A DNA stretch of 64,000 nucleotides from a virus (IMGVR_UViG_3300013137_000018:2773-66772); one strand, 5' to 3'; shown: positions 30,255 through 52,014, numbered from the stretch's first letter. Made by a program: numbers and translations. The notes: generated by a model not told the origin, from the sequence alone.

Positions 30255-30466
30255 TATTACAATTTTTAATTCATCAAATGGATATTCTTGTTTCTTGACA
30301 TAAAAATATATAAGAATAAATATTAATAGTTTAAAATGAAATATAAAAAACTACAGAAGAATTTATAAGAGAAGATAATCCAAAACAAAAAGAAAAAGAT
30401 CGTATTAGACAACAAGATATTATAGATTTTCTTAAATGTAAATTTATTAGAATAAGTATTAAATAA
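30255..30466. pseudogene. Internally deleted homing endonuclease remnant (+ strand, 30336-30466) beside a duplicated uvsW 3' end (30255-30302)
   Basis: + strand: MKYKK/TTEEFIRE fused to DNPKQKEKDRIRQQDIIDFLKCKFIRISIK; - strand: YVKKQEYPFDELKIVI, a copy of the UvsW C-terminus YIPQEYPFDEIKVII. Confidence 0.65.
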
Positions 30467-31397
30467 TTACTTTAATTTCATCAAATGGATATTCTTGAGG
30501 TATATATAAATCTTTTTTTCTTGAGATATAATGATTATATAAAATGGTTTTATAAGAACTGTGAAACTGGTCAACTATATCAAATATAACAGCTTTATCA
30601 CCTTCTTTATCTTTGTGCAATCTTAAAGCACGACCAATAGATTGTAATACAATACGAGCAGACTTAAACGAATCTGCAAATATTATATTTTTCAAAGCTT
30701 TTATACTAACACCAGTAGAAAGAGTACCAAAAGATGCGACTAATATTTTAGGTCTGCCATCAGTTATTTCCATTTGTTTTTTGATATATTCTCTTTTTTC
30801 AGATGTTGTTTGACCATCGATATAATAGAAGTCTTTATCAAGAACATTTGACCTAAAATAATTATATAACGTTGTGCCATAATCTATGTTATGAAAAAGT
30901 ACAAGTGAATTGTTTTTGAATTTACCAACTAATTTACTTAAAAATATTTTTCTTTTGTCTGAATTTTGAGCATATTCTTTTTCTAATTCATAGGCTCTTT
31001 TACCATTACCATATTTCTTAATTGTATAAACACTTTCAGCAAAAGACGAATCATCATATTGTAATATTAAACATTTAACTTTTACATTTGAAATTAGACC
31101 TTTTGACATAAGTTCTTTTGCTTTAACTGCGATTAATTTAGGTCCAGTAACAGATTCAATAGCCATCCATTCAGATGTTCCTTCTAATGGATATGTACCT
31201 GACATACCAAGTCTATAATGTGCGAAACCAAAAGTTTTCTTCATTATAGATTGTAGAGTTTGCGCTTTCGCAGTATGACAATTACTTACACATATATCAT
31301 TTGCAAAATAGTTGTTTTTAATATTACGTCCATTCTTAACTCTTAAATTATAAACTTCACCATTATAATTTATTTTTTTTATTGTTTTTATTTTCAT
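30459..31397 (-). CDS. uvsW: UvsW helicase C-terminal half, led by a split-intein C-fragment (39 aa, 31397-31281)
   Basis: MKIKTIKK..GEVYNLRV..NYFANDICVSN|CHTAKA; then LGMSGT, FGTLSTGVSIK and LQSIGRALR SF2/UvsW motifs. Confidence 0.9.
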   Translation of the reverse strand: MKIKTIKKINYNGEVYNLRVKNGRNIKNNYFANDICVSNCHTAKAQTLQSIMKKTFGFAHYRLGMSGTYPLEGTSEWMAIESVTGPKLIAVKAKELMSKGLISNVKVKCLILQYDDSSFAESVYTIKKYGNGKRAYELEKEYAQNSDKRKIFLSKLVGKFKNNSLVLFHNIDYGTTLYNYFRSNVLDKDFYYIDGQTTSEKREYIKKQMEITDGRPKILVASFGTLSTGVSIKALKNIIFADSFKSARIVLQSIGRALRLHKDKEGDKAVIFDIVDQFHSSYKTILYNHYISRKKDLYIPQEYPFDEIKVII

Positions 31398-32373
31398 CAA
31401 ATTGTCTTAAATTTTTAATTAATTTTTCTTTATTTATTTGATTATTTAATAATTCTTTGTTATAATTTTTCTTAAACCACTCATCTTCAATTATTACATA
31501 TTTATAATCATTTTCAACAGACCATTTAATAGCATATTCTCTTTTAATTTTGTTTTTTAATTTTGTTTTTTCGCTTCTAGGTTTTATTTCATATAAAATT
31601 TTATTAACAACATCTAAAAAATCTATAATATAAATATGTTTTTTATTTTCATAAAAATATGGTATTCTGATTTTTTCATATAACAATTCAGGATTTACAA
31701 TATGAAAAAAAGATTCCCAAGAACTTCTATGTTTTATTATCTTATCGTTGATCAATGTTTCTATTCTCGAATGACACCAACTATTAGTTACACAAGGTGT
31801 AAAAGTTCCATTAATTATGCGTTCTTTTATAGATATCGAAATTTTTTCTTTCCATTTTTTTTTATTTTTTATTTTATAAACACTATTATTATCAATTTGT
31901 TTTTTTGATCTATATTCAAATAAACATTTATCAGAACAAAAATGATTATATACATTTCTACTCCTTATACCTATAAATTTTGTTGTTTTTCCACATATTT
32001 TACATTTTCTATCTTTCTCACTAATATTCGATAATAGAAAATATATTTCTTCTACTGTTTGTTCTACACCTTCAATTTTAATATAATTTATATCTAACCA
32101 TTTTTTTAAACTTTCATCTATATTTTTTCTATTTAAAAATTTATTTTTTGATTTTAAGTCACAAAAAAGAAAATTAAATATTTTTTCTTTTACATCTTTA
32201 TCACTATTCTTATCCACTATTAAATAGTCACTTTCTATTAATATTCTTTCTTTTTTTGTATTAATATTAAACATTTTATTACAAGATAAACATTTATATC
32301 TTAAATTATTTTTTTCATACCAACTTGTTACTATCTTTGATTCACATTTTGGACAAATTGTTATTTTAGTCAT
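31363..32373 (-). CDS. Free-standing endonuclease (Zn ribbons plus TnsA-N/gp4-like PD-(D/E)xK domain) between the split-intein halves
   Basis: CPKC, CLSC, CKIC..FCSDKC; HRSSWE..YEKIRIPY..IYIIDF..LYEIKP. Confidence 0.75.
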   Translation of the reverse strand: MTKITICPKCESKIVTSWYEKNNLRYKCLSCNKMFNINTKKERILIESDYLIVDKNSDKDVKEKIFNFLFCDLKSKNKFLNRKNIDESLKKWLDINYIKIEGVEQTVEEIYFLLSNISEKDRKCKICGKTTKFIGIRSRNVYNHFCSDKCLFEYRSKKQIDNNSVYKIKNKKKWKEKISISIKERIINGTFTPCVTNSWCHSRIETLINDKIIKHRSSWESFFHIVNPELLYEKIRIPYFYENKKHIYIIDFLDVVNKILYEIKPRSEKTKLKNKIKREYAIKWSVENDYKYVIIEDEWFKKNYNKELLNNQINKEKLIKNLRQFDENKNNKKNKL

Positions 32374-32391
32374 AGCCTTTGTTTTTTATAT

Positions 32392-33441
32392 CTATATATT
32401 AAAATCTAAAATATCATCTTTTTCTAAAAGTTCATCAACTCTTTTCCATAAATAATTTTTTAATAGTACTTCGTGATTTCCTGTGATTTTAATAATATCA
32501 CCATTTTCCATTTCTAATTCATACATCTGTTGTCCTTGTGATAAATTTTTATACACATATTCAACTTCTGTAATTTCTTTGTTTTTGGTTTCTTCATTAA
32601 AAGATATTATTTTATCACCAATAATTAATTCTTTTATCATTTTTTTACTACCATCAAACATCGTTATTTTTGTTTCTGGATGTAAACACTCATCAACCAT
32701 AACAACATTAAATTGTTTAAAGAAATTAGGTTCTAACTCAGCTGTACCATAATTTATCAACGATTGATATGTACCTATATAAATATTTGGTTCTTTGCCA
32801 TCACGAACCTTTCTTGGTTTGTCTGACATAATCTCTTGTATGTTTATTTCTAAAGGATTTTTATTTTCTTTACCAAATCCTAAATTATAATCTATCATAT
32901 CATCATAGAATTGTGTTACAAGTGATATTGAAGGAACTATAAGTAAAATTTTTGTATCTGGTCTTCTTTTTAAAATATAGAAAACCATAATAGAAAATAT
33001 TAACGATTTACCACCAGATGTTGCGACCTCTACTGTTCCGTATCTGTGCTTTAACATTCTATATGCCGCATTAATTTGATGCGAATATGGTTTAAAATCT
33101 TCGCCTTTTAATTTATGGTCTTTAAAGAAATCATCACAAAAATTAGATACATCTTCTAATGTTATTTTATTGTCTCTTGGGAATTGTTCTTTATTAAGAA
33201 CAACAAATGGATAACCATATTCTTTACAGCAATTATAACATTCTTGCCATAAACCAAAATCAATTATACCCGTATCAGTCATATATTCAAATTTTCCATT
33301 CCATTTTGTTAATTTAAATCTTGGCATGAAACGATATCCTTTTACATAAGGTGACAACCAATTTTTCAAATTATTGAACTCCTCTCTTGTAGATTCTTTT
33401 AATATGAATTTACTACGATCTTTGCTAATTTCAAATTTCAA
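32392..33441 (-). CDS. uvsW: UvsW helicase N-terminal half ending in a split-intein N-fragment (98 aa, 32688-32395)
   Basis: GYRFMPRFK..WNG, PYSHQ, ATSGGKS, LLIVPSISLVTQ, GTYQSL, VMVDE|CLHPETKI...ITGNH (blocks A and B), then stop. Confidence 0.9.
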   Translation of the reverse strand: MKFEISKDRSKFILKESTREEFNNLKNWLSPYVKGYRFMPRFKLTKWNGKFEYMTDTGIIDFGLWQECYNCCKEYGYPFVVLNKEQFPRDNKITLEDVSNFCDDFFKDHKLKGEDFKPYSHQINAAYRMLKHRYGTVEVATSGGKSLIFSIMVFYILKRRPDTKILLIVPSISLVTQFYDDMIDYNLGFGKENKNPLEINIQEIMSDKPRKVRDGKEPNIYIGTYQSLINYGTAELEPNFFKQFNVVMVDECLHPETKITMFDGSKKMIKELIIGDKIISFNEETKNKEITEVEYVYKNLSQGQQMYELEMENGDIIKITGNHEVLLKNYLWKRVDELLEKDDILDFNI

Positions 33442-33513
33442 AGCCTTAAAATAACATTTTGAGTTTCCGTATCTAACTAAAGTAGCCTAAGAAACTATTT
33501 CTTCATAACAAGT

Positions 33514-33972
33514 TTAGTCTAAACCAGTTGCATTATATAAATCAATTTTATTTTTGACTGCATATAATATTTGGTCAACACTTTTTATTGATTCTGTTAA
33601 GAAATTTATATAATTTTGAATATATTCCATTTTTGCTTCATAATAAGCCATGTCAGCTTCAATGAGTTTTGTTTTTTCAGTACCATTTAGTTTAATGGGA
33701 TATTTAGTAGAATACCATTCAAAATGTTTTTTTCTCATTTGTTTTAATTTTGGCAAATCTTTATACATTTTGTATAACCAATTTGTTCTTTCATCTATTA
33801 GAAGTTGTCTTTGTGAAGTAGCTTCTGCTGACAAATCTATAGTTTTTTTAAGTTCACAAGTTATCTTTCTTGATAAGTTTTCTATTATTATATTCCAACT
33901 TTTTTGTTTTGTAATTAAATCAGTCTCCAACTTTTCTAATATTTTTTCAAAATCGATTTTTTCTTCACTCAT
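33514..33972 (-). CDS. uvsY: UvsY-like recombination mediator
   Basis: Helical 152-aa protein next to uvsW; WYSTKYPIKL..TEK..LIEAD and SIKSVDQILYAVKNKID resemble UvsY. Confidence 0.55.
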   Translation of the reverse strand: MSEEKIDFEKILEKLETDLITKQKSWNIIIENLSRKITCELKKTIDLSAEATSQRQLLIDERTNWLYKMYKDLPKLKQMRKKHFEWYSTKYPIKLNGTEKTKLIEADMAYYEAKMEYIQNYINFLTESIKSVDQILYAVKNKIDLYNATGLD

Positions 33973-34037
33973 TTAAATCGGATATTTTTTGTTTTATATT
34001 ATAAATTAACAAAATAGTTTTGTTATTTTATATTAAT

Positions 34038-34271
34038 ATGAAAATTCTCACTTGACAAAAATTCAACGAAAAATTACAAAATAAAAACCATGCAATTTTA
34101 TTAAAAACTGGTGAAAAGTTTTATTTTTCAGAAGAACAATTAGAAAAAATAAAAGATGAGGAATGTATGTTATTTTGGGTTGATGAAGATGGTGTCAACG
34201 GTGAATGGACACATGGTAAAATACCAGGTAATTTAATCTCAGAAATTGAGAAACAAATAGAAATCATTTAA
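34038..34271 (+). pseudogene. 77-codon ORF with an in-frame TGA at codon 6 (MKILT*QKFNE...)
   Basis: ATG at 34038, TGA at 34053, then open to TAA at 34271; leader resembles the capsid-targeting motif. Confidence 0.5.
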
Positions 34272-35032
34272 ATTTTCTTGAAATAAATATTAAAATAATA
34301 ATCAAACTTATAATCAGTTGAAGGTTTAGTTTGAAAATAATTAATCTTTAAATTAGCCAAAGGATCTATAAAATTTGATATTTCAACATTAGCACTAGTA
34401 TTTTTATTTGCTACCAATTCAATATCACTTCTGAATTGTGGGTCAAATTGCTTTAATGTAGAATTACTCCATATAGTATTGTTTTTAATATCAATATATT
34501 TAATATAAAAATCGATGTAATCAAATGCAAATCTGTCTAATAAATTCAAATCTATATAATTATAAATTGATGTGTTAATATCATTATTTATAAATTTATC
34601 ATATGTTATACACTTAAAAGTTCTTCTTTCTTTTATTTTTGCAAAAAGATAATTTCTTAAAATTTGTTTAATATCAACATCAATGAACCATTTTGTGTTA
34701 TATTTTTCATCTCTTGTTGTTTGAGTTGCTTTTCTGATAGTATGATTTTGATATTTTAAGTCAACAGAATCTAATATGAAAAATGTCTCATACATTGAAT
34801 TAAGATTGTAATATTGATAACCATTATTTTTCATTAATGTTTGACCAGTTGTGTCGTTTGGATCTGTTGATGTATAATAATATTGAAAATATTGAATACT
34901 TTTATCATCAACAATGACTTCATCTTCTAATTCCATTATCTTAGAACCAAAAAACGAATTCTCTTCCAATAAATTAAAAGTACCATTAACATTTTCTTTT
35001 ACAAACTTTTTAAGTATTAAAGTCTCTTTCAT
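34268..35032 (-). CDS. Hypothetical virion-associated protein
   Basis: Last gene of a tightly packed three-gene run. Confidence 0.7.
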   Translation of the reverse strand: MKETLILKKFVKENVNGTFNLLEENSFFGSKIMELEDEVIVDDKSIQYFQYYYTSTDPNDTTGQTLMKNNGYQYYNLNSMYETFFILDSVDLKYQNHTIRKATQTTRDEKYNTKWFIDVDIKQILRNYLFAKIKERRTFKCITYDKFINNDINTSIYNYIDLNLLDRFAFDYIDFYIKYIDIKNNTIWSNSTLKQFDPQFRSDIELVANKNTSANVEISNFIDPLANLKINYFQTKPSTDYKFDYYFNIYFKKI

Positions 35033-35033
35033 C

Positions 35034-38000
35034 TTAACTTATTTCATTTTTTGTTCTTGTATAATAATCTGAATCCCAAGAAGATTTGAATATAAATCTT
35101 TTATCATATGAATAGCCAAATTCGTCTATCATTGGATATATTGATCTGTCTTCTTCTGTGTTTTGTATTTTTAAAATGTTTTCGGTTTCATTAACTTTTG
35201 AATACATTAATTCACTAACTTCCCCAAATTCATATAATGAAGTATCAAATATAGTATTAGCTTCTGTGCTTGACACATATGTTAGACCAGTTTCAATACT
35301 ATTAATTGTATAATGAACTGTTATACAAACACAATCTATATATCCTATATTAACAAGAGTTCCTAATGATCGTTTATAAGAATTTATTTTTACACTTATT
35401 CCAAAGTTATTATCATTTAATTCTTGTGGCGTTAATGATAATCCCCACAAATCACTATCTCCACCATAAGAAACTGATGTTGAAGCTGTACTCCAGTATG
35501 CAAAATTATTACCAGTATTTGTCATTGTAGAATCTAATGGCAATATTGCATAATTTAATCCTGATGTACCATCTGGTTTAACCAAAACTATATGATTATC
35601 TGATATTGTACTATAAGTACTAAATGTCGAAGCACCAACACCAAGATTTGCTCTTTTTCTTATATTAACAGTTATACCATTTATTGTAGAATCTAATGGA
35701 ATATTAAAATTAAATGTATTTATTTCTAATGTATTTGATTCTGATTTAGTAGGATCAGGATCAGTCGGTGTCATTAAAATATCACAACTTGCATAGTTTC
35801 CATCACAAAGACCAAGAGCTTTATCTCTAAACATCCAAGTAAACCCATCACCGCCACCTAAAATTCCACTCGTTGAACCACTGAGAACATTTATCTGATT
35901 TTGAACATGATATGACAAACCAGAATAGAATAATTGTTGACTTAGTAGTTTATTGATAACATCGGTATCATCATCAATATATGCATCATTCAATTCTTCT
36001 GTTATTTCAGACATTCTTATGGTATAATAGTCTAATGTGGCGTACAATTTATTTATTTCTATTGCTGTGTTATATTGTGATATTTCATACAATCCTAAAT
36101 TGTTTATTTCAGCTAAAAATCCGCCACATTTATTTTGTGTAAAATATCCACCAGTTATAATATTATAAGATATTGGTGAAAATAGTTCTATGTTTTTGAA
36201 TATTGGTTCATAAGGACCATTATATCTATAAATAGTATTTTCATACTCTGGTGTTGATTTAAATTCTGGTATAGGTTTTTTCTCAGCTTCATTCAATTCT
36301 ATAACCCTTGATAATGGTTCTTTTATAAAAGATTTATCATAAATTACTTCTGTAAAATCTGTTTTATACTTATCATAAACATTAAATTTAGGTCCTTTTA
36401 TCGCAGCAGCATTGTAAGAATTTTTCTTTGTTGTTAATGAATCTGGTGTCTCACATTCTATTTTTATAGGTGGAAAATCTTTTCCCCAAGTTGAAATATC
36501 ACGTAAAGGATAAACATTACTTTGAACACCAGGATTTATTTCACAAAAACCAAATTCTGCATCCTCATTAATATAATAGAAAGATACATAATAATCAAAT
36601 GTTCCTTTATCATTCAGATTGTTCAATGATACTATAAAATTATAAGCAACAAGTAAATTATTATCATAATCAGAAAAGGCTGTTGTTCCAGATTTGGTCG
36701 TATTCATATATAAACCTTCTCTTTGATCAAAGTGTGATATGTTATTTAATGTCAATATTTCATTATTTGTTGGTTGTTTAAAATTAACATTTACTATAAT
36801 TAAAATATTTTTATATTTATCATTAACAAAAATATGAATACCATTATCATCACCTAAAATATTGTTTGATGAATATACTTTATCCAAAGGTAACAAATCT
36901 TCATAATCTGATAATAGTTTATTTGTGTAACCTGTATATTTTTCATTCAATATGATAGAAAATTTATATCCATTATAGTTTGTAGAATTATCTACAATAA
37001 ACTGATTAATATAACCCGTAGTTTTATCTCTTATTACATTTGAAACTTTAAATATGTTATATTTAATACCTTTAAATAATGTTGATGATTGAATGTGTGA
37101 ATCACCATTATTGATAATAGAATAATGTGCGGTTTGAACATATTCTTCATTCGAATTTATATATCGAATATTTCTGAAAAAGTAATCAAAGTAATCAAAT
37201 TCACTTTCTATATATTTGTCTAAATCAAAATAATTTGTTTCCAAAGAAGATGTTTGTATAGAAACAGATTGATTATCATAATACTCTATATTACAAGATA
37301 TTTGATTATTCGATTCTTCTGTTGAATAAAAATCACCTATTTTATAAAAATAATCATGCGTTTTTGTTAGAACATTTGATTGTCTAGTAATAACATCGGT
37401 AGTTCTATTAAAAACAGAACCAACTTTATTACTATTGTTAAGTTTGTATGGATAATCTGAATGAGATAAAGAATTGACATATGCCCACTTGCAAACATTT
37501 TGATTTTTTCTCCAAATATTTGTAAGACCATTTTTTGTTAATTCATATAGTTCATCAGTTGCAACATATTCTGAAGACACATTCATTATTTTGTCAGAAA
37601 GAATGTTATCTTTATCGTATGTTTTAAAAACCGTGGATTCTGATGCATCACGATGTTCAACCGCATATAATTTATGCTCCGTAGTATCTATATATTGGTC
37701 TTTTCTATGGAAGTCAAAATTAGCAAAACCAGAATCAATTCTATTAAAATCAAAATCTTTTATTTCTCTGAATTTTACTCTATAAACTGGAAATGTTATT
37801 GGTTCTTTTTCGTTTATTGTATCTTCTACTTGAACTGTTTTTGAATATGTCGAATCAGTTTGATTTACTAACCAATATTGTAATGTGTTATCATCACACT
37901 CTATTGCATAATCTGTTCTTATATAATGTTCTAATAAACCATCATATTCATTTAATTCACACTCTAAGACATGATATTTACCATCTATCTTTATCAAATA

Positions 38001-39278
38001 CAAATCTGCATATAAATCTGTAATACCATCAGTTTGAATTAAACTATCAATATAATTTGTCATTACAGTTCTAGACCTCAAATAATTATAATAATTTTTA
38101 TTACCTAAGTCTTCGAAGAATATATCAATTTCATTATCTCTTGTTATATCAGATATTAATATATTTTGGTCTGATATTATTTTATAATGCCATTCACGGT
38201 TTTCATAAATTTTAATAACTTTATAAAGATTATCAATAGCGTAAACATAATAATTCTTTTTATCATCCCACGAATCAATATCAAAAGGCATTGTGCTTCC
38301 ACTTATCTGATCTTCATCCATGAAAATATTATTTTCAATCTTTAAACCACTTTTGAGTTTTGTTGCTCTATAAGGAGTTAAAGTTTTAACTAATTGTAAA
38401 TCAGCATAAAATCCATAATATCTGTTAATTGAATATTTTTTAAGTTCAAATGGACTTGCTGGTGTATCATCGAATAAAAATTTGAAATTAGCAATATTTG
38501 GGAATATCAATTCGTTATTTTTATATCCTTCGGTGATAAATTCTTCCAATTTAAAATGCGGATTTTCATATTTTAATTTATCATCAAGATACATACTTTT
38601 ACTTGTATAAACACCTGTAAAGTAATCTATTCCATACCATCTTGTTAGATTATATTTTTTAGTATCTAGTTCTAATGGTGCTTTTGGAAATCTTGGATTT
38701 GATATGTAATTTTGATCTAACCAATAACCAAAATCACTTGTTAAAGTCATATCAAATAATGTAACACATTTCCATTTATTAATAATTTCATCTCTAAAAT
38801 TATCTTTACTTGTGTTTGATAATTTATGATCTTCTTCTGACAAAGTGTATGTTGACGGCTCATCTACTCTCAAAATAACAAAACATTCTGGTAATTCATT
38901 TTTTGTTACATATAATGGTGCAAAATATTCATATTCTTCTTTATAAAATTCATTCTCTTTTACCTTCATTGCACCAGCCCAATAAGTAGTATCATATTGA
39001 TTTTCATATGAATTATAGACTATATCATCATCTGAATCAAATTTAACATTAAAGGCTATGTTTATTGGCAAAGACTTATAAAATTCTGCAACCTTATCTT
39101 CTAGATAGGTATATTTTGTCATTGAAAAATGTTTATACTTATCATCAGCTAAGAACTTATGAGAATTTATACTTTCTAAATATAATTTATACTCTGAATC
39201 AACAACTATTTGAAAGTTTGTCGTTAAAGAAGGGTTTGTCCTTATTAATTGAAAACTATTATTTACAATATAATTCAT
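35034..39278 (-). CDS. Large structural (baseplate/tail-associated?) protein
   Basis: 1414 aa; C-terminal GITVNI..YGGDSDLWGLSLTPQELNDNNFG beta-sandwich domain of the kind seen in virion proteins. Confidence 0.65.
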   Translation of the reverse strand: MNYIVNNSFQLIRTNPSLTTNFQIVVDSEYKLYLESINSHKFLADDKYKHFSMTKYTYLEDKVAEFYKSLPINIAFNVKFDSDDDIVYNSYENQYDTTYWAGAMKVKENEFYKEEYEYFAPLYVTKNELPECFVILRVDEPSTYTLSEEDHKLSNTSKDNFRDEIINKWKCVTLFDMTLTSDFGYWLDQNYISNPRFPKAPLELDTKKYNLTRWYGIDYFTGVYTSKSMYLDDKLKYENPHFKLEEFITEGYKNNELIFPNIANFKFLFDDTPASPFELKKYSINRYYGFYADLQLVKTLTPYRATKLKSGLKIENNIFMDEDQISGSTMPFDIDSWDDKKNYYVYAIDNLYKVIKIYENREWHYKIISDQNILISDITRDNEIDIFFEDLGNKNYYNYLRSRTVMTNYIDSLIQTDGITDLYADLYLIKIDGKYHVLECELNEYDGLLEHYIRTDYAIECDDNTLQYWLVNQTDSTYSKTVQVEDTINEKEPITFPVYRVKFREIKDFDFNRIDSGFANFDFHRKDQYIDTTEHKLYAVEHRDASESTVFKTYDKDNILSDKIMNVSSEYVATDELYELTKNGLTNIWRKNQNVCKWAYVNSLSHSDYPYKLNNSNKVGSVFNRTTDVITRQSNVLTKTHDYFYKIGDFYSTEESNNQISCNIEYYDNQSVSIQTSSLETNYFDLDKYIESEFDYFDYFFRNIRYINSNEEYVQTAHYSIINNGDSHIQSSTLFKGIKYNIFKVSNVIRDKTTGYINQFIVDNSTNYNGYKFSIILNEKYTGYTNKLLSDYEDLLPLDKVYSSNNILGDDNGIHIFVNDKYKNILIIVNVNFKQPTNNEILTLNNISHFDQREGLYMNTTKSGTTAFSDYDNNLLVAYNFIVSLNNLNDKGTFDYYVSFYYINEDAEFGFCEINPGVQSNVYPLRDISTWGKDFPPIKIECETPDSLTTKKNSYNAAAIKGPKFNVYDKYKTDFTEVIYDKSFIKEPLSRVIELNEAEKKPIPEFKSTPEYENTIYRYNGPYEPIFKNIELFSPISYNIITGGYFTQNKCGGFLAEINNLGLYEISQYNTAIEINKLYATLDYYTIRMSEITEELNDAYIDDDTDVINKLLSQQLFYSGLSYHVQNQINVLSGSTSGILGGGDGFTWMFRDKALGLCDGNYASCDILMTPTDPDPTKSESNTLEINTFNFNIPLDSTINGITVNIRKRANLGVGASTFSTYSTISDNHIVLVKPDGTSGLNYAILPLDSTMTNTGNNFAYWSTASTSVSYGGDSDLWGLSLTPQELNDNNFGISVKINSYKRSLGTLVNIGYIDCVCITVHYTINSIETGLTYVSSTEANTIFDTSLYEFGEVSELMYSKVNETENILKIQNTEEDRSIYPMIDEFGYSYDKRFIFKSSWDSDYYTRTKNEIS

Positions 39279-39279
39279 C

Positions 39280-42417: not shown

Positions 42418-42534
42418 AAAGATAAAAATATATTTTATCCTATATATAAAATATAGACATCTAAAAGGATAAAATTAATATATGTTAATAGGGTATCATG
42501 ATCTTGCACCTTTTTTGTAACAAATTAATGGTCA

Positions 42535-43212: not shown

Positions 43213-43213
43213 A

Positions 43214-43885
43214 TTAAGGTTTGTATAAAGGATTAGGTTTTATAACGGATGGACCTCTTTTTCCATTATCCATCATCTGACTAAATGATAGATAAGAAAA
43301 TTTACCAGTACCAATAAGTTTATTATTAAAAGTGTGTGATGCCGAATTCCAAATTAATTCTATATGCCATAAAACTAATTCCGAATTTTTATCATCGAAT
43401 TCAATTTCTACAACAGTATCAAAACGTCCACCATATCTCATTGCACTAGTTGATATTTTTTCTGGATATAAATTCCAATTATTTCTAGCATATTTCCAAA
43501 CATCAAAAACAAGTGGATTAATATTATTATATTCTATAAATTGTTTTATTGTATTTTCATCTCTTACAGCTTCTTTTTCATGTAATACATTAATTGAATA
43601 TTTTTGACCTGGTTTCCAATCAGGTGTTTCTTTTTTCATATTTGAATGCTTCCAATTTTTCAATTCTTCTATTGGAAATCTTCTTACCATCGGCTTTTTA
43701 CCAAATCTCTCTTTTAGTGCTACCCAATTATTACCTATATCTACTATTTCATATTCTAAAACTTCTGGTGAAAAAATTATATCACCTTCTTTTGCATATA
43801 AAATACCACCTACTCTAATTTGATTTGGTTTTTTACTAATTGAAACTTCATTAACAAATTCAATATATTTATTTAAGTTTTTCAT
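43214..43885 (-). CDS. Hypothetical protein with capsid-targeting-like leader
   Basis: MKNLNKYIEFVNE. Confidence 0.7.
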   Translation of the reverse strand: MKNLNKYIEFVNEVSISKKPNQIRVGGILYAKEGDIIFSPEVLEYEIVDIGNNWVALKERFGKKPMVRRFPIEELKNWKHSNMKKETPDWKPGQKYSINVLHEKEAVRDENTIKQFIEYNNINPLVFDVWKYARNNWNLYPEKISTSAMRYGGRFDTVVEIEFDDKNSELVLWHIELIWNSASHTFNNKLIGTGKFSYLSFSQMMDNGKRGPSVIKPNPLYKP

Positions 43886-43900
43886 AATGTTTTTATTTTT

Positions 43901-44035
43901 TTATATAGATACTATTAATGTTGTCGAATCAGGTGTATAGCATTTAAATCCAAGGTCTTCTTCTAATCTTTTTCTACCTTTTTTTAAATCTGATACTTCA
44001 TCAAAAATTATTTTAATATCATCACCTTCTTTCAT
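43901..44035 (-). CDS. Small ORF (44 aa) coupled by ATGA overlap, or frameshifted tail of the upstream gene
   Basis: MKEGDDIKIIFDEVSDLKKGRKRLEEDLGFKCYTPDSTTLIVSI; not in the ORF track. Confidence 0.45.
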   Translation of the reverse strand: MKEGDDIKIIFDEVSDLKKGRKRLEEDLGFKCYTPDSTTLIVSI

Positions 44036-44400
44036 ATGAATGGATCAATATCAGCCAATTTTGTTATTACATTATCCATAAAATTTTCTTGTGTAGTATA
44101 ATGTTTGGCTTCATTAACAAATTCAGAATATTTCAACACCTTTCTCTCCATCTTATTTAAAACTCTATCTCCATTAATATGGTCTGAATCTGTTTTATCA
44201 TCCAAAATTCTTATATTTAAAGATTTTAATAATTTTTCACCACATTCTTCTATAGATACGCCATTATTAAAATCTTGGTTTACTATAGGCATAATATTAT
44301 CTTTATTAAGTTCCTTAATAACATCATTAATTTCTGATGGTGTATTAAGATTATTCTTTATATATTCTTGTATTTGTTCAAAATATGTTGAAATATCCAT
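44032..44400 (-). CDS. Hypothetical protein with an internal capsid-targeting-like motif
   Basis: KVLKYSEFVNEA; TTTTAATATATA motif upstream at 44421-44432. Confidence 0.65.
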   Translation of the reverse strand: MDISTYFEQIQEYIKNNLNTPSEINDVIKELNKDNIMPIVNQDFNNGVSIEECGEKLLKSLNIRILDDKTDSDHINGDRVLNKMERKVLKYSEFVNEAKHYTTQENFMDNVITKLADIDPFI

Positions 44401-44503
44401 ACCTTAATTATTTTTTAATTTATATATTAAAATTCAATTTTTAAAAATCTAATAAAAAATACACAAGCATCTTATTTAATTTATAAAAATTGGTAATATT
44501 TTA

Positions 44504-44655
44504 AAATGGACAAAAGAAAATGCAAGGAAGAATCATTAAAATATAATAACAGAACAGATTTTAGAAAAAAATCTAATGGTTCTTATAGTTCAGCTTTAAA
44601 AAATAAATGGTTAGAAGAAATTTGTTCACACATGAAAACCAAAAAAAGAAAATAA
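44504..44655 (+). pseudogene. Remnant of a homing-endonuclease-associated helical repeat
   Basis: KWTKE/CKEESLKYNNRTDFRKKSNGSYSSALKNKWLEEICSHM with a frameshift; no nuclease domain is left. Confidence 0.55.
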
Positions 44656-44677
44656 ACTATAAGAAATAAAAAAATTA

Positions 44678-46309
44678 ATGATAAAAATAAATGATAAATT
44701 AAATATTCATTTTCCTTTAAAACTTAAACCAAGGCAAGAACAGATAGCAGCATTAAATTTTTTAAAAGAAAGTATAAATAATGGTAAAAGATATGCAATG
44801 TTAAATTTACCAACAGGTATTGGCAAATCTTATTTAGTAATGATGTTTGCGAATTATTATAGAAATTATATTAATGAAAATGCAAAATTTGATATTCTTA
44901 CAAATTCAAAAATTCTTCAGAAACAATATATAAATGAATTTCCATTCATAAAAAATTATGAAGGTCGTGGAAATTATATATGTGATCCCCATGATAGTGA
45001 TTGCTCAAAAGGTTGGGAAATTTGTAAAGTTCTTGGTCCTCACTGTGACACAGAATGTCCATATGATAAAGCTAAAAAAAATTGGCAATGTTCAGAAATA
45101 GGTTTGACAAATTTTCATTTATTTAATACTATCGCTATTTATGTAAGAAAAATATTAGAAGGTCGTGATTCACATGTTCTTATTATAGATGAATCACATT
45201 CATTCGAAGAGGTGTTTTGCGATTTCATAACAACTTCTATATCGGCTCGATCATTAAAAAAGTACGGATTTAATATGAAAGAAATAGAAGATTATGATAG
45301 AACTTTGATGAGAATAAAAAAAGTTAGTGATTTTGTTGGATTTATTAAACATCAATTTAGTCAAGATGTGACCGATAAATATACATGGTTAGAGGATATG
45401 CTTAAAAATGCTACTCCAAAATTAAGACAAGAATATTCACAATATAAATCTCATTGCGAATCTCAATTAATGAAATTTAAATATTTTGTACAGGAATTTG
45501 AAAAAAAACCAGATAATTGGATTTTGGATATAACAAAAACTAATGATAAAATGTTTTCAGGATTACTTTTAGAATCAAAACCAGTATGGGGTAATGATTA
45601 TATAAAAGAAAAAGTATTCGACAAATATGATTTTATACTTTTTATGTCTGGATCAATTCTTGATAAAAACATGTTTTCTTATATAAATGGATTAGAACCA
45701 GAATTAACAACATATTTTGATGTGCCTTCGACATTCCCTCTAAATCGTAGACCAATTTATTATTTAAAAATTGGTAGTATGTCTATGAAAGAAAAAGAAG
45801 AAACATTAAAAAAACAATTAGAATATTTTAAAAAAATATTAAAAAAACACCAAAATGAAAAAGGCATAATTCATACCACTAATTATGAAAATTTAGAATA
45901 TATTCAAAAAAATTTAATGGATAAAAGACTAATATTTCATACACCAGAAAATAGAGACGAAATGTTAGAAAAACATATTAATGCTGATTATCCTTCTGTA
46001 ATAGTTTCGCCTTCGATGATTAGTGGAGTTGATTTAAAAGATGATTTATCAAGATTTCAAATCATACAAAAAATTCCATATCCGTTTCTCGGTTCAGAAA
46101 AGATTAAACAACGACAAAAAACAAAACCAGAATGGTATATTTGGAAAACAATTTGTGATTTGATACAATCTTATGGTCGTTCAATAAGAAGCCATGATGA
46201 TTATGCTACAACATATATTTTAGATTCTAATTTCTCAAATGTACTTAAATATAATTCTAAATTATTACCAAGGTGGTTCACTAATGCAATAAAAGAATTG
46301 AAGTTATAA
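44678..46309 (+). CDS. DinG/YoaA/XPD-family SF2 helicase with putative Fe-S cluster
   Basis: Q motif (PRQEQ), PTGIGKS, Cys cluster CDPHDSDC..C...C..CPY, IIDESH, MSGS, GVDLKDDLSRFQIIQKIPYP, QSYGRSIRSHDD, ILD. Confidence 0.9.
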   Translation: MIKINDKLNIHFPLKLKPRQEQIAALNFLKESINNGKRYAMLNLPTGIGKSYLVMMFANYYRNYINENAKFDILTNSKILQKQYINEFPFIKNYEGRGNYICDPHDSDCSKGWEICKVLGPHCDTECPYDKAKKNWQCSEIGLTNFHLFNTIAIYVRKILEGRDSHVLIIDESHSFEEVFCDFITTSISARSLKKYGFNMKEIEDYDRTLMRIKKVSDFVGFIKHQFSQDVTDKYTWLEDMLKNATPKLRQEYSQYKSHCESQLMKFKYFVQEFEKKPDNWILDITKTNDKMFSGLLLESKPVWGNDYIKEKVFDKYDFILFMSGSILDKNMFSYINGLEPELTTYFDVPSTFPLNRRPIYYLKIGSMSMKEKEETLKKQLEYFKKILKKHQNEKGIIHTTNYENLEYIQKNLMDKRLIFHTPENRDEMLEKHINADYPSVIVSPSMISGVDLKDDLSRFQIIQKIPYPFLGSEKIKQRQKTKPEWYIWKTICDLIQSYGRSIRSHDDYATTYILDSNFSNVLKYNSKLLPRWFTNAIKELKL

Positions 46310-46317
46310 AATAAAAA

Positions 46318-46335
46318 AAACCCACTAGTGGGTTT
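46318..46335. terminator. Bidirectional intrinsic terminator
   Basis: Palindrome AAACCCACTAGTGGGTTT flanked by A and T runs between convergent genes. Confidence 0.7.
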
Positions 46336-46340
46336 ATTTT

Positions 46341-46871
46341 TTAGTATCTACGAGATTCGTTTTTCTTTTTGTCTAGTTCTTCTTCGGCTTTTGATTTTTT
46401 CTCACCAGCTTTCTTTTTCTTTTGTTCTTCACGCCATTTTGCTAAACCAGCACCTTTTTCACCAGTTTTATATTCAGAAAAACTTTTTATTCTTTTCTCT
46501 TTCTTTTCTTTTGGACCAGGCACAGGTCTTTCTTTTTTAACAAATTTTTCAGCATCGGCAGGATCTTTTGCTTTATCGCCAATAAAATAGTAGGTACTAT
46601 TTTCTTTATTCTTGATAAAAGTTTCTCTTTCAACTTTTAACTTTGTTAATAAAGGATCATGAGCTAAATTATCAGCAACTTTTCTTGATATTTTATCAAT
46701 ACCCTTTTCTTCGAATTTAGCTTCGACCTTTTTAATCATTTCGTATCTATTCATTTTTTGTTTAGATAATTCATCTTTAAGAAATTCCATTACTTTCTTT
46801 TCCAATTCAACCACTTCAGCTTTTTTTGCTGCTTCGTTAATATTCAATGTGTCAAACCTTGCTAGTTTCAT
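46341..46871 (-). CDS. Lys/Glu-rich basic protein, possibly an internal head or DNA-binding protein
   Basis: MKLARFDTLNINEA leader; internal RIKSFSEYK. Confidence 0.65.
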   Translation of the reverse strand: MKLARFDTLNINEAAKKAEVVELEKKVMEFLKDELSKQKMNRYEMIKKVEAKFEEKGIDKISRKVADNLAHDPLLTKLKVERETFIKNKENSTYYFIGDKAKDPADAEKFVKKERPVPGPKEKKEKRIKSFSEYKTGEKGAGLAKWREEQKKKKAGEKKSKAEEELDKKKNESRRY

Positions 46872-46916
46872 TTTTTATTTAAATTATTTTTTTATTTATA
46901 TATTAATTTTAAAAAT

Positions 46917-47201
46917 CTATTTTTTTGGAGATTCTGAAAGTGGTATCCATTCTAATCCGTAACCTCTAATTCCTTTCCAGCCATCTTTTCTCCAATTTCT
47001 TAAATCTCTCATTAAGAAAAATAGTTCAGATTCAATATCTAATGTGAATAAAGTACCTGGAATGCCAATTTCATTTTCTTCATCATACAATGATTGTAAT
47101 TCGTTTAAAACTTCATCAAGATCATATTCGCCTCGCAACATTATAATTTTAGGATTAACTCTCAATCCTTCATTTAATTCACCAACTTTCTTTATCTTCA
47201 T
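46917..47201 (-). CDS. Small protein with capsid-targeting-like leader
   Basis: MKIKKVGELNE. Confidence 0.6.
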   Translation of the reverse strand: MKIKKVGELNEGLRVNPKIIMLRGEYDLDEVLNELQSLYDEENEIGIPGTLFTLDIESELFFLMRDLRNWRKDGWKGIRGYGLEWIPLSESPKK

Positions 47202-47259
47202 AACTGTAATATTATTTTATCTATGAATTAATTGTAACCATCTTTTAAAATCCATTAAT

Positions 47260-47382
47260 TCATTTTTCAACATCGTCCATTAATTCTTTATTTCTTTTAC
47301 TTATTTGGTTTTTTAAAGAATCATCCGTTATTAGTGTTTTTAAATCTTCGAATTTTTTAATGTGTTTCAATGTTATAAACAT
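47260..47382 (-). CDS. Small or truncated protein with capsid-targeting-like motif
   Basis: MFITLKHIKKFEDL, preceded by TTTTTATATATAAAA; may be frameshifted at an A-run near 47265. Confidence 0.4.
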   Translation of the reverse strand: MFITLKHIKKFEDLKTLITDDSLKNQISKRNKELMDDVEK

Positions 47383-47477
47383 TTTAATTTCTTTTATATA
47401 TAAAAATTCAAAAACAAAATACTTATTTTGTAATGATTTTTGATAATCTAAAGAGTGAATAAAACTATTTTTTAAAA

Positions 47478-48275
47478 TTAATATAAAAACAGTTATACTA
47501 AAGTAAAAATAATTTGTAAAAAACACGGAGTTTTTGAACAAAAACCAAATTCACACTTAAATATCATTCATAATAATAAATATGATTATTCAATGGTAGA
47601 ATATAAAAATTATAAGGAAAATGTAAAAATAATATGTCCAGAACATGGCGAATTTTATCAAAGAGTTAGTAATCATTTAAATGGTAATGGTTGCACAGAA
47701 TGTGATAATAAAAATAGAAGAAATAAAGATTATATCGAAAAGTGTAGACTAAAATTTAAAAATAAGTATGATTATTCATTGGTTGATTATAAAAATAATA
47801 AAACTAAAGTAAAAATAATTTGTAAAATACACGGAATTTTTGAACAATAAAAGACCATTTAAATGGAAATGATTGTTCCAATAAAAAAATGAATACAAAT
47901 CTATTTATTGAAAAATCAAAAATAATACATGGGAATTTATACGATTATTCATTAGTAGAATATAAAAACGCTTTTGAGAAAATAAAATAATAATATACAA
48001 TATGAATATCAAAAAAGTTTTGACGATTGTAAACATATTTTAAAACTACCATTCGATTTTTATATTCCAAACAAAAATTTATGTATAGAATATAATGGTA
48101 TGCAGCATTACAAACCAGTAGACTATTTCGGTGGGGAAGATGAGTTTAAACTAAGAAAAAAAGAGATAAAATAAAAAAAGATTTTTGTAAGGAATATGGA
48201 TTAAAATTAAAAATAATTTCATATAAAGATAATATTATTAAAAAAATAACTAAGATTTTAAATGCAGAAATATGA
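47478..48275 (+). pseudogene. Decayed homing endonuclease (DUF723-like YDYS..ICxxHG repeats plus Vsr-like nuclease)
   Basis: Fragments KVKIICKKHGVFEQ, YDYSMVEY..ICPEHGEF, LPFDFYIPNKNLCIEYNGMQHY..D..K..FC, interrupted by stops, frameshifts and deletions. Confidence 0.8.
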
Positions 48276-50049
48276 AAAATTAACTCCAATAGAACATGTC
48301 TTGAAAAGACCTGGTATGTACATTGGTGATAATCAAAATAATTTGAGAAATATATTTGTTGTTACAGATTCCGAATTAGATGAAATAAAATTAACGCAAA
48401 AAATAGTAAAATATAATCCTGGATTTTGTAAATTATTCGATGAAATTATTACTAATGCGGCAGATCATTGTATAAGAACACAAAAAGTAAAATATATTAA
48501 AGTTTATGTTTATCAAGATCACATAGAAGTAGAAAATGATGGACCAGGTATACCAATTGAAATGCACAAAGAACATAAATTGTATATACCCGAAATGATA
48601 TTCGGTCATTTACATAGCGGTTCTAATTTTGATGATTCTGAAGAAAGAACTTGGGGCGGAATGAATGGTTTAGGCGCTAAATTAACAAACATCTTTTCCA
48701 AAAAATTTATTATAGAGACTGGTGATGGCAAAAAGAATTATTATCAAGAATTTACAAACAATCTTGATAAAATAGAAAAACCATCTATTACAAAATCAAG
48801 CAAAAATTATACGAGAATATCTTATTATCCAGACTTTGAAAGATTTGGATTAGAATCTATAACACCCGAAATAGAACAAATTCTTATGAAAAGAGTTATA
48901 GATATTTCTGTTTATTGTCCTAAGGTTAAAGTTTATTATAATGATAAACAAATACCAATCAAGACTTTCAAAGATTACATGAAAATGTATCTTACACCAG
49001 AATCAGAAACATTCTATGAAAAATTAAATGAAGATTGGGAAATAGGTATATCATCTTCTTCCGATGATACATTTCAACAAGTTTCCATGGTTAATGGTAT
49101 AGCAACTATTAACGGTGGTTCTCATGTTAATCATGTTACTAATCAAATAGTTACACAAGTAATAGACACACTTCAAAAGAAACATAAAAAGATTAAGATA
49201 AAACCAGCTGATGTAAAAAATAAATTGTTTATATTTTTGAATAGTAAAGTTGTAAATCCTATTTTTGATGCACAGACAAAAGAAACATTGACAAGTAAAT
49301 TAACACAAAAAGACATTGGTGGTGTAAATGTTTCTGATAAATTAATAAAGCAATTATTACAATCTAATATAGTTGAAGATATTTTAAATTATATTCAATT
49401 AAAAGAAAACGCAGAATTAAAAAAATTAAATAAAGGTAAAGTATCAAAAGTTAAAGTAAAGAAACTTGATGATGCAAATTTTGCAGGAACATCACAATCT
49501 GAAAAGACTTATTTAGCATTAACTGAAGGTGATAGTGCAAAATCTTTTTGCATTAGTGGCTTTGAAAGTACAGGAAGGGATTATTGGGGGGTTTTTCCAT
49601 TAAAAGGAAAACCGTTGAATGTGCGTGATTCATCAATGGCTAAAATAAAAGAAAATGAAGAAATACAAAATATAGTTTCAGCATTAGGATTAGAATTTGG
49701 CAAAAAATATACTTCAACAAAGGAATTGAGATATGGTAATTTGGTATTAATAACAGATGCGGATTGTATAGAAGAAAATACTTTGATAAGAACTAAAAGA
49801 GGTGATATAAAAATAAAAGATTTGACATATGATGATTTAGTTTTAACTCATTCAGGAAAATATAGACGTATTAAAAAAATTATAAAAACAAATAAAAAAA
49901 AATACGTGGAGATTGAAATTAATGGAAAAATATTAAAAGTTAGTGAATATCATAAAATGATAGTTATTAGAGACGGTGAGCAGTTAGAATTGTTTGCAAA
50001 AGACATATTAAAAACAGATTTGTTATTATTTAGAAAAAATTCATCATAA
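48262..50049 (+). CDS. top2: Type IIA DNA topoisomerase N-terminal part (GHKL ATPase, transducer, TOPRIM N-half) ending in a split-intein N-fragment (94 aa, 49765-50046)
   Basis: EHVLKRPGMYIG, DEIITNAAD, NDGPGIP, GGMNGLGAKL, TEGDSA, FPLKGKPLN, ITDAD|CIEENTLI...SEYH, then stop. Confidence 0.92.
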   Translation: MQKYEKLTPIEHVLKRPGMYIGDNQNNLRNIFVVTDSELDEIKLTQKIVKYNPGFCKLFDEIITNAADHCIRTQKVKYIKVYVYQDHIEVENDGPGIPIEMHKEHKLYIPEMIFGHLHSGSNFDDSEERTWGGMNGLGAKLTNIFSKKFIIETGDGKKNYYQEFTNNLDKIEKPSITKSSKNYTRISYYPDFERFGLESITPEIEQILMKRVIDISVYCPKVKVYYNDKQIPIKTFKDYMKMYLTPESETFYEKLNEDWEIGISSSSDDTFQQVSMVNGIATINGGSHVNHVTNQIVTQVIDTLQKKHKKIKIKPADVKNKLFIFLNSKVVNPIFDAQTKETLTSKLTQKDIGGVNVSDKLIKQLLQSNIVEDILNYIQLKENAELKKLNKGKVSKVKVKKLDDANFAGTSQSEKTYLALTEGDSAKSFCISGFESTGRDYWGVFPLKGKPLNVRDSSMAKIKENEEIQNIVSALGLEFGKKYTSTKELRYGNLVLITDADCIEENTLIRTKRGDIKIKDLTYDDLVLTHSGKYRRIKKIIKTNKKKYVEIEINGKILKVSEYHKMIVIRDGEQLELFAKDILKTDLLLFRKNSS

Positions 50050-50051
50050 TC

Positions 50052-50078
50052 TATTGGCATTGTAATCCGAAAATATAA
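50052..50078 (+). pseudogene. Fossil fragment of a Vsr-like homing endonuclease in the intein spacer
   Basis: tat tgg cat tgt aat ccg aaa ata taa = YWHCNPKI*. Confidence 0.6.
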
Positions 50079-50115
50079 CAGATTTTAAAAATAAAAATAA
50101 AAATATAATATATTT

Positions 50116-52014
50116 ATGATAAATTTAAATGAATATGATTTTTATAAAATAGATAATGTTAGTATAAAAATTAATGATATAAAAGAAAAATATTACGATA
50201 TAGAAATAGAAGATGATAATACTTTTCATATTGTGTCAGATAATGATTTAATATTAACACACAATTGTGACGGAAGTCATATAAAGGGACTACTTATAAA
50301 TTTTTTCGAAAATTTTTTCCCAGAATTATTAACTTTAGATTTTATATATGAATTTGTAACCCCGATTATAAAGGCGGAATATAAAAATGATATAAAATAT
50401 TTTTACAAATTAAATGATTATACTAAATGGAAAAATACAAAAACATCAAATAATTATACAATCAAGTATTTTAAAGGGTTAGGTACATTAGAACCTTATG
50501 AGGCAAAAATGTTTTTTAAGGATATTAAAAAACATCTTATAAAATTTAATTATGATAAACCAATAGAAACAAAAGATATTATAGACCTAGTTTTCAATAA
50601 GAAGCGTTCAGATGATAGAAAAGAATGGTTGTTAAATTATAAACCAGGTATATTAATTGACAAATTTGGTGAAAAAACGACATATAATGATTTTTTTAAT
50701 AAAGAATTTATTGAATTTTCAATGTATGATAACATACGTTCTATACCTTCTGTTATTGACGGATTAAAACCTTCACAAAGGAAAATATTATATGCAACAT
50801 TAAAGAAAAAATTATTCAGTGATACCAAAGTCAGTCAATTTAGTGGATATGTTATAGAGCAGACATCGTATCACCATGGAAATGTGTCACTTGAAGATGC
50901 AATCGTGTCAATGGCTCAGGATTTTGTGGGGTCTAATAATTTAAATTTACTATTACCGAAAGGACAATTTGGTACTAGAATAAATGGTGGTAAAGACGCA
51001 GCATCCAGTAGATATATTTTTACAAAATTGAACCCCCTTACAAGATACATTTTCAAAGAAGAAGATGATGACATTTTAAATTATTTAGATGATGATGGTT
51101 TTTCTATTGAACCAGAATGGTACACACCAGTAATTCCTATGATTCTTATTAATGGTGCAGAAGGTATTGGAACAGGTTGGTCAACAAAACTACCAAACTA
51201 TGATCCTGCAGATATTATTAAATATTTAGTATTGAAAATAAAAGATAAAGATGTTGAACCATTACATCCTAAATATAAAGGATTTAAAGGAAAAATAGTA
51301 TTCGATTCTGAAAATAATAGATACATCACCAGAGGTATAATTAAAAAGGTTAATATGAGTACATTAAATATTAGCGAATTACCTATTGGTATGTGGAATG
51401 ATAAATATTATGAGATATTGGATGAACTTGTAAATGATAAAATTATTAAGGATTACTCTAAAAACGATACAGACACAAAGGTTGATATTACAATAAATAT
51501 ATCAAGAGAGAGTTTAAAAGATATTGAAAATAGATTGATTGAAACTTTCAAATTAGAAACATATTTAAGTATATCAAATATGCATCTTTTTAATAAAGAT
51601 GGTCAGATTCACAGATATGAAAGTATAGATGAAATTATAAATGAGTTTGTGGAAGTAAGACTCGAATTCTATGAAAAAAGAAAAGAGTATATTTTATCAC
51701 AATTAGAAAGAGATAGAAAGATTTTATTTAACAAGATGAAATTCATTAATGAAATTTTAAAAGGTTCATTAGAATTGAAAAATAAGAAACGAGATGAAAT
51801 TGAATCAAAGATGGAAGAATTAGAAATATCTAAACTCGATGATTCATATTCATATTTATTAAATATGTCTTTAGTGTCTTTGACTACTGAAAAATTGGCT
51901 GAATTAAAAAAGTTATATTCTGATAAAAAAGAAGAAATAGAAGCCTTGAGTAAGACTTCTATTAAACAACTTTGGTTAAAGGATCTTAATGACCTTTATA
52001 AGAAATTAGGTTAA
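50116..52014 (+). CDS. top2: Type IIA DNA topoisomerase C-terminal part (TOPRIM C-half plus GyrA/ParC-like core), led by a split-intein C-fragment (50 aa, 50116-50265)
   Basis: YYDIEIEDDNTF..ILTHN|CDGSHIKGLL, YFKGLGT, RSIPSVIDGLKPSQRK, YHHG, catalytic AASSRYI, NGAEGIGTGW. Confidence 0.92.
   Translation: MINLNEYDFYKIDNVSIKINDIKEKYYDIEIEDDNTFHIVSDNDLILTHNCDGSHIKGLLINFFENFFPELLTLDFIYEFVTPIIKAEYKNDIKYFYKLNDYTKWKNTKTSNNYTIKYFKGLGTLEPYEAKMFFKDIKKHLIKFNYDKPIETKDIIDLVFNKKRSDDRKEWLLNYKPGILIDKFGEKTTYNDFFNKEFIEFSMYDNIRSIPSVIDGLKPSQRKILYATLKKKLFSDTKVSQFSGYVIEQTSYHHGNVSLEDAIVSMAQDFVGSNNLNLLLPKGQFGTRINGGKDAASSRYIFTKLNPLTRYIFKEEDDDILNYLDDDGFSIEPEWYTPVIPMILINGAEGIGTGWSTKLPNYDPADIIKYLVLKIKDKDVEPLHPKYKGFKGKIVFDSENNRYITRGIIKKVNMSTLNISELPIGMWNDKYYEILDELVNDKIIKDYSKNDTDTKVDITINISRESLKDIENRLIETFKLETYLSISNMHLFNKDGQIHRYESIDEIINEFVEVRLEFYEKRKEYILSQLERDRKILFNKMKFINEILKGSLELKNKKRDEIESKMEELEISKLDDSYSYLLNMSLVSLTTEKLAELKKLYSDKKEEIEALSKTSIKQLWLKDLNDLYKKLG

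Follow-up and report, generated by a model that had tools for sequence, protein, structure and literature searches.

It is well established that electrostatic attraction guides how split-intein halves associate (Dassa et al. 2009, PMC2677866; excerpts of Beyer et al., bioRxiv 10.1101/546465, and of the Aes123 PolB1 paper, PMC11923092). In particular, complementary local charges of either polarity were described for fractured genes, and gp41-1 and gp41-8, two naturally split inteins known from ocean metagenomes, were reported with a positive N-terminal intein half (IntN) and a negative C-terminal half (IntC) (Dassa et al. 2009, PMC2677866). According to excerpts of Beyer et al. (bioRxiv 10.1101/546465), the polarity of gp41-1 is opposite to that of NpuDnaE, and NpuDnaE with swapped strand charges still spliced with its wild-type partner. 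Moreover, AesN is taken as the positive partner of AesC in passages of the Aes123 PolB1 paper (PMC11923092), while 15 out of 16 split inteins are given as mutually orthogonal in excerpts of Pinto et al. The words UvsW and topoisomerase have 0 occurrences each in the text of Dassa et al. 2009 (PMC2677866), and no uvsW split intein was described in the retrieved passages of literature naming both uvsW and a split intein. Here, two split inteins were analysed in IMGVR_UViG_3300013137_000018:2773-66772 (hereafter the window), which comprises 64 kb (64,000 nucleotides) of a 66,772-bp viral contig; one interrupts the helicase gene uvsW and the other the gene of a type II topoisomerase (topo II). With a probability of about 80%, they are two independently acquired mobile split inteins of two old, widespread phage lineages, and their opposite charge polarity is not adaptive. 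The uvsW lineage is acidic in IntN and basic in IntC, as in DnaE, NrdJ-1 and IMPDH-1, and the topo lineage basic in IntN and acidic in IntC, as in gp41-1 and Aes123 PolB1. Each lineage would thus bring its own charge segregation, the opposite polarity being a by-product of which two lineages landed here. Both inteins are uncharacterised members of known lineages, and the concept of reversed polarity is already in print.

To begin with, both genes were found broken into an IntN-bearing and an IntC-bearing open reading frame (ORF), with the ORFs and junctions where the preliminary description had placed them. The uvsW N-ORF (32392-33441, minus strand; 349 aa) runs to ...VMVDE and continues with CLHPET..., a 98-aa IntN (32395..32688) and a stop codon (32392-32394), and the uvsW C-ORF (30459-31400, minus strand; 313 aa) begins with an IntC ending in ...VSN (39 aa, 31281..31397), followed by CHTAKAQ and Helicase_C. 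On the plus strand, the topo N-ORF (48262-50049; 595 aa) runs to ...ITDAD and continues with CIEENT..., a 94-aa IntN (49765..50046) and a stop codon (50047-50049), and the topo C-ORF (50116-52014; 632 aa) opens with a 50-aa IntC (50116..50265), followed by CDGSHIKG. The computed charges agreed exactly with the four hand counts made earlier: 20 D/E and 13 K/R in UvsW IntN (net -7), 2 and 8 in UvsW IntC (net +6), 14 and 22 in topo IntN (net +8), and 12 and 4 in topo IntC (net -8). The uvsW pair is therefore DnaE-like and the topo pair is reversed relative to DnaE, as had been proposed. Going by T4 genetics, calling uvsW and phage topo II essential was overstated.

The difference in net charge between IntN and IntC was compared among alleles, counting duplicates once (L004 equals L005, L007 equals L008, and L018, L019, L020 and L025 are identical in the region). 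This difference was below zero in 10 of 11 DE|CH helicase inteins (the remaining one, in G011, being +5) and -16 for NrdA. Positive values were found for five of six topo DAD|C inteins (the sixth being zero), topo EGD|S (+16 and +12), PolB DTD|S (+20 and +17, with +19 in Aes508 and +22 in PTm1) and the IMPDH-like intein (+16). These values show that polarity follows the intein allele and not the co-resident inteins. Furthermore, both polarities were found in complete genomes with a sole intein detected by the Pfam family PF14890 and our own IntN profile (A3), which was added because PF14890 is blind to topo-type inteins. These were Salmonella phage S16, with a uvsW intein of -7/+5 (IntN/IntC), and Aeromonas phage Aes508, with a PolB intein of +8/-11. 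The latter and the intein of Tenacibaculum phage PTm1 (+8/-14) resemble the topo intein in their basic IntN and very acidic IntC.

A total of six records had two or more split inteins. Opposite polarities appeared in three of them, namely the window (G000; uvsW -7/+6, topo +8/-8), G005 (uvsW -2/+1, PolB +5/-15) and G009 (uvsW -6/+1, PolB +5/-12). On the other hand, polarity was the same in G006 (helicase -6/0, NrdA -14/+2) and in G004, where a single gene carries topo EGD|S (topo-a, +5/-11) and topo DAD|C (topo-b, +4/-10), and it was not opposite in G003 (topo DAD|C -4/-4, IMPDH-like +7/-9, and a topo EGD|S IntC of -8). Opposite polarity is thus not needed where split inteins co-reside and, since the two polarity classes are both common among phage split inteins, a single opposite pair amounts to roughly a coin toss. 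The orthogonality selected in the phage that had been put forward for this pair is consequently not borne out: polarity tracks the allele, both polarities occur alone, and half of the co-resident records are not opposite. A lone detected intein of either polarity, as in S16 and Aes508, is the sort of finding that had been said to refute the idea, though two genomes are too few to show that both polarities are equally common.

Several points weigh against this reading. Firstly, S16 and Aes508 were judged to have a single intein by two detectors that are both imperfect, as the six-frame search with PF14890 misses topo-type inteins; for instance, it gave no match in G012, though this record has a topo EGD|S split intein. 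Secondly, the six co-residence records were ascertained via the two alleles themselves, G005 and G009 share both alleles, all six are fragments with a completeness of 7-68% (CheckV), and three opposite pairs out of six leave room for a modest enrichment. Moreover, net charge is a coarse proxy, and the window charges (+8/-8 and -7/+6) are among the strongest of either allele. Polarity can also drift, and could in principle be tuned, given the range found among topo relatives. Scanning all 1.84 billion library representatives by HMMER with the topo IntN gave 219 matches at E<=1e-3; among the 150 matches listed, 41 had the D.D|C Toprim context, of which 31 stop at IntN (split) and 10 run on, and the IntN net charge of these 31 listed split relatives ranged from -9 to +10 (20 positive and 11 negative). 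Finally, the uvsW IntC has Asn in block F where many inteins carry Asp, and Ser replaces its penultimate His, its activity being assumed from conservation across relatives.

A more useful lead than the window pair, and the strongest evidence on the charge question, was a topo II cut in three by two split inteins of the same polarity. Among the matches listed, 10 library proteins had an acidic IntC (-4 to -12, ending in ...SHN|SA), 68-78 extein residues, DxD|C and an IntN. Seven of them stop at the IntN (P0010, P0016, P0018, P0032, P0040, P0044 and P0149) and are the middle pieces of such a three-piece topo II, and in the other three (P0011, P0039 and P0056) the second intein is contiguous. The two split-intein sites, EGD|SA and DAD|C, both in Toprim, are about 75 residues apart. 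The complete set was found in one contig (L009:482-4876, plus strand; the G004 gene above): the N piece with its IntN (IntN-a) and the piece carrying the second IntC (IntC-b), with the middle piece and an endonuclease ORF between them. Another locus (L006:7797-12587, plus strand) has the middle piece and the IntC-b piece, and 1.4 kb upstream it also has an IMPDH-like split intein; the N piece with IntN-a was not found within this locus. IntN-a is about 170 aa long and seems to have an extra repeat-like segment. Both inteins of the three-piece topo II are basic in IntN and acidic in IntC. In the middle piece, the acidic IntC of one intein shares a chain with the mostly net-basic IntN of the other. 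This layout is the one used in engineering to cyclise peptides and is prone to cyclisation; for a natural gene with two split inteins, the literature search gave engineering papers only. As three-piece genes would fail if net charge decided pairing, specificity must rest on more than net charge.

It may be speculated, as a rather unlikely possibility, that net charge forms just the coarse level of a more detailed code for partner choice and that very large phages with many inteins are selected to keep their codes distinct. If so, the three-piece middle protein, which must avoid self-pairing despite attractive charges, would be a natural test, the uvsW/topo pair would be truly orthogonal, and the 31 listed split topo variants with their range of IntN charges would constitute a ready-made series for the rules of split-intein specificity.

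The uvsW intein lies in the DECH box, its locus consisting of IntN, a free-standing endonuclease gene and IntC. The N-extein (251 aa, 32689..33441, minus strand) matched Pfam UvsW_N, ResIII and DEAD and contains helicase motifs I-II, and the C-extein (273 aa plus stop, 30459..31280, minus strand) matched Pfam Helicase_C; splicing of both halves at DE|CH would restore the DECH box. The IntN begins with Cys1 and has a block B of sequence TGNH, this motif being defined as (T/S)xxH. It matched Pfam Hint with 36.6 bits (cut-off 29.7), Intein_splicing, and PF14890 in the six-frame search (36.3 bits). Between the halves lies a 336-aa ORF (31363..32373, minus strand), which matched phrog_15427 'endonuclease' (1.6e-28), had no Pfam match and overlaps the IntC ORF by 35-38 nt. 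The IntN ORF, free-standing endonuclease ORF and IntC ORF on one strand are exactly the layout of the fractured genes of Dassa et al. 2009 (PMC2677866), in which intein halves flank a homing endonuclease gene within phage genes of DNA metabolism. Regarding the IntC, its true start is most likely the ATG at 31397, giving 39 aa, as judged from its relatives: MKI(K/N) is the IntC start at the matching point in all 10 IMG/VR relatives with the uvsW intein, and the matching motif of S16 (MRLKSIKEIKK) sits within the annotated ORF. The penultimate Ser (VSN|C) was found in the window and in nine of these 10 relatives, the other one having VAN and S16 having AHN.

Salmonella and Proteus phages of the S16 type, as well as Lak megaphages, carry the uvsW intein at an identical position. 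The IntN with its flank was 47.6% identical to S16 and relatives over 98% of the query, and IntN was 58% identical to that of Lak-B4, where the IntN was found and no IntC ORF appeared under table 11. Among 52 IMG/VR uvsW loci, 11 had the intein at this site and the other 41 matched the extein only; jackhmmer matches starting past profile position 10 were excluded as helicase C-terminal extein (L022, L029, L043, L050, L051, L054-L059 and others). S16, STP4-a, Proteus phage PM2 and others share the DE|CH site and the three-ORF layout of the window. In S16 (L013, NC_020416, record 104626-107352), the three ORFs are gp114, gp114.1 and gp115, gp114.1 occupying the position of the endonuclease-like ORF, and the record names them 'DNA helicase', 'hypothetical protein' and 'DNA helicase; UvsW', without naming an intein. 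S16 is alike in polarity but differs in being cultured and T4-like, with a size of about 160 kb and no second intein detected. Cyanobacterial DnaE (Npu, Ssp) has an acidic IntN and a basic IntC like the uvsW intein; its halves are, however, encoded at distant loci, and it resembles the UvsW IntN only weakly (E ~0.1).

A variant of the uvsW locus was observed in G005, a 421-kb contig (L017:10088-10507, plus strand), where the IntN ORF extends 42 residues with two Cys pairs (CCPVC and CCNC) and the IntC ORF begins directly after it. By its sequence, this extension looks like the zinc-ribbon start of an endonuclease fused to IntN. A PolB split intein is also found in this contig, along with several contiguous inteins.

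The topo II intein lies in the Toprim DxDxDG motif and has probably lost its endonuclease, with a 66-nt spacer left. The N-extein (501 aa, 48262..49764, plus strand) comprises the GHKL ATPase, the transducer and the first Toprim half (Pfam HATPase_c and DNA_gyraseB), and the C-extein (582 aa plus stop, 50266..52014, plus strand) matched Pfam TOPRIM_C and DNA_topoisoIV; splicing at DAD|C would restore DADCDGSH. The IntN begins with Cys1 and contains a block B of sequence SEYH and the basic stretch RRIKKIIKTNKKK, while the IntC has a block F of sequence YDIEIEDDNTF and ends in ...LTHN, with Cys at +1. In the alignment of the IntC with five IMG/VR relatives, D28, I29, E32, D33, F37, L47, H49, N50 and C+1 were invariant. 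Both topo ORFs are in one reading frame, and the AT-rich spacer (50050..50115) has four stops in that frame; the split is thus real and not a single stop inside a mini-intein, and a single in-frame stop or read-through was rejected. In another frame, the spacer reads YWHCNPKI* (50052-50078, plus strand), which has a match to GDYWHCNP in an L024 ORF and resembles GD(L/I)WH(G/A)NP, as found in the endonuclease ORFs that separate the halves of the PolB intein in L067 and L069. This reading is probably the relic of a lost Vsr-like homing endonuclease, to judge from these motifs.

Among topo relatives in IMG/VR, the halves are separated by an ORF of about 390 aa in L004/L005, which have the fractured-gene layout that the window, with its 66-nt spacer only, does not have at topo II. 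In L001 and L002 the halves lie kilobases apart with other genes between them, and L010 has an uninterrupted topo II homologue of 1092 aa. The topo IntN had no tblastn match at E<=1e-3 in 50,697 phage records, this allele being absent at that sensitivity from the cultured and deposited phages of the collection, and a word-indexed protein search with the IntN region retrieved only the protein of the window itself. Against PDB chains it matched gp41-1 and the AceL NrdHF intein, gp41-1 (6QAZ/6RIZ) being the best solved match (6qaz), although weak (E=0.0017). The K-rich IntN strands of both align (KTNKKKYVEIEI in topo and KSKKKSYKITL in gp41-1). Both inteins have an acidic IntC with a polarity opposite to DnaE, a block B of the form SxxH and a split at the endonuclease insertion site. 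They differ in the host site (topo II Toprim DAD|C vs. gp41 helicase), in the 50-aa length of the topo IntC and in the absence of an endonuclease gene between the topo halves of the window. The cysteine-less PolB1 intein of Aes123/Aes508 has relatives in PTm1 and in Lak phages, and PolB halves of the Aes508 type flank a Vsr-like endonuclease ORF. The PolB DTD|S intein, found together with that of uvsW in both G005 and G009, uses Ser1/Ser+1 chemistry and is absent from the window.

In both loci, each cognate IntN and IntC would come together in the infected cell, form a HINT fold and splice in trans, with expected products of about 524 aa for UvsW and about 1083 aa for the fused topo II. A clearly unlikely alternative is that splicing has been lost at one locus or at both, leaving either fragments that act as non-covalent subunits held by intein remnants or a dead gene. 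Precedent exists in nrdA, which assembles non-covalently after being broken by a mobile element (excerpts of PMC3045599). The alternative is also favoured by the two substitutions in the uvsW IntC described above and by the topo halves scoring below Pfam curated cut-offs (for IntN, Hint_2 at 24.9 with a cut-off of 28.4, and Intein_splicing). The penultimate residue of the DnaE split intein is also Ser instead of His. Against a loss of splicing, Cys1, the terminal Asn, Cys+1 and the block B His are present in both inteins. The HN|C junction was invariant in the six aligned topo IntC sequences, as were the block B His and an Asp in the IntN alignment (A3), and the uvsW junction residues are conserved across relatives, including the cultured S16. 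Furthermore, the model of the topo IntN/IntC complex scored 0.68, compared to 0.00 for the best control, a mark reached by 58 of 80 solved complexes and two of 110 mismatched pairs; contacts agreed by at least 94% between runs, with a partner pLDDT of at least 75. The halves are thereby predicted to associate into one intertwined fold, although the pass may reflect likeness to solved split-intein complexes. The most confident modelled contacts joined IntN 36-42 and 48-51 with IntC 26-30 and 12-17. At the modelled interface, the basic IntN 34-46 (RRIKKIIKTNKKK) faces the acidic IntC 24-32 (EKYYDIEIE).

Little credence can be given to the opposite polarity having been selected in the phage, or favoured on retention of the second intein, with the repulsion of cross pairs serving to prevent helicase-topoisomerase chimeras. 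The mirror-imaged net charges are real, and three of the four halves lie in the 5% tails of the contig proteins. Compared to same-length segments of the 33 contig ORFs of at least 150 aa (overlapping ORFs retained), the topo IntC was in the lowest 1.7%, the UvsW IntC in the top 3.3% and the topo IntN in the top 4.7%; the UvsW IntN, at the 14.6th percentile, was unremarkable. The strength of the window charges within each allele, the three opposite records out of six, the evolvable IntN charge of the listed topo relatives and the established electrostatic steering, as described in the excerpts cited above, point in the same direction. However, S16 and Aes508 keep the polarity of their alleles with no second intein detected, and a single opposite pair is expected about half of the time. 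The three records that are not opposite include the three-piece topo II, in which mis-pairing would cyclise or skip the middle piece. In addition, the charge swap in NpuDnaE did not abolish cross-splicing in the excerpts of Beyer et al., and unrelated inteins are orthogonal by default in those of Pinto et al. (15 of 16). That the splits are artefacts of sequencing errors or of a chimeric contig has a negligible probability: the source is a single metagenomic contig and the topo ORFs share one frame, but the spacer has four stops instead of one, and the split recurs independently in 31 library representatives among the matches listed, several IMG/VR contigs and cultured S16.

Under the favoured reading of two independently acquired lineages, mirror-image charges arise when a phage collects inteins of the two known polarity classes, and they give no indication of having been tuned. 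The two inteins of the window are probably mutually orthogonal, mainly owing to an identity of only about 30% (25 of 84 positions shared in the IntN alignment, 10 of 33 in that of the IntC), and charge repulsion of cross pairs is plausible at most as an addition to this divergence. As material for protein engineering, the window offers two natural split inteins with Cys+1 junctions, which are probably usable side by side; the topo intein is gp41-1-like in a compact, endonuclease-free locus, and the uvsW intein is also found in the cultured S16.

The source contig had a completeness of 9% by CheckV and the window a G+C content of about 25%, its phage nature being indicated by tail spike and virion structural proteins among the PHROG matches. 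The window is most likely a piece of a very large phage genome, since the nearest topo II exteins (<=57.8% identity) were found in uncultured phages of 460-735 kb. Taken together, the six-frame search with PF14890, which picked up the uvsW intein only, and the A3 profile detected the uvsW and topo inteins in the contig and none further. Two other proteins were considered as inteins and rejected, being without splice motifs and without a PF14890 or A3 match. The first one (59170-60684, minus strand; 504 aa) is a fusion of a dNMP kinase N-part (Pfam DNMK, phrog_139) and a LAGLIDADG-type endonuclease C-part. The second one (61697-63502, plus strand) is a DUF2201 metallopeptidase-like/VWA protein with a Q/G/N-rich insert of about 130 aa and two CxxC pairs between its two domains, where a PHROG 'HNH endonuclease' family matched residues 341-560.

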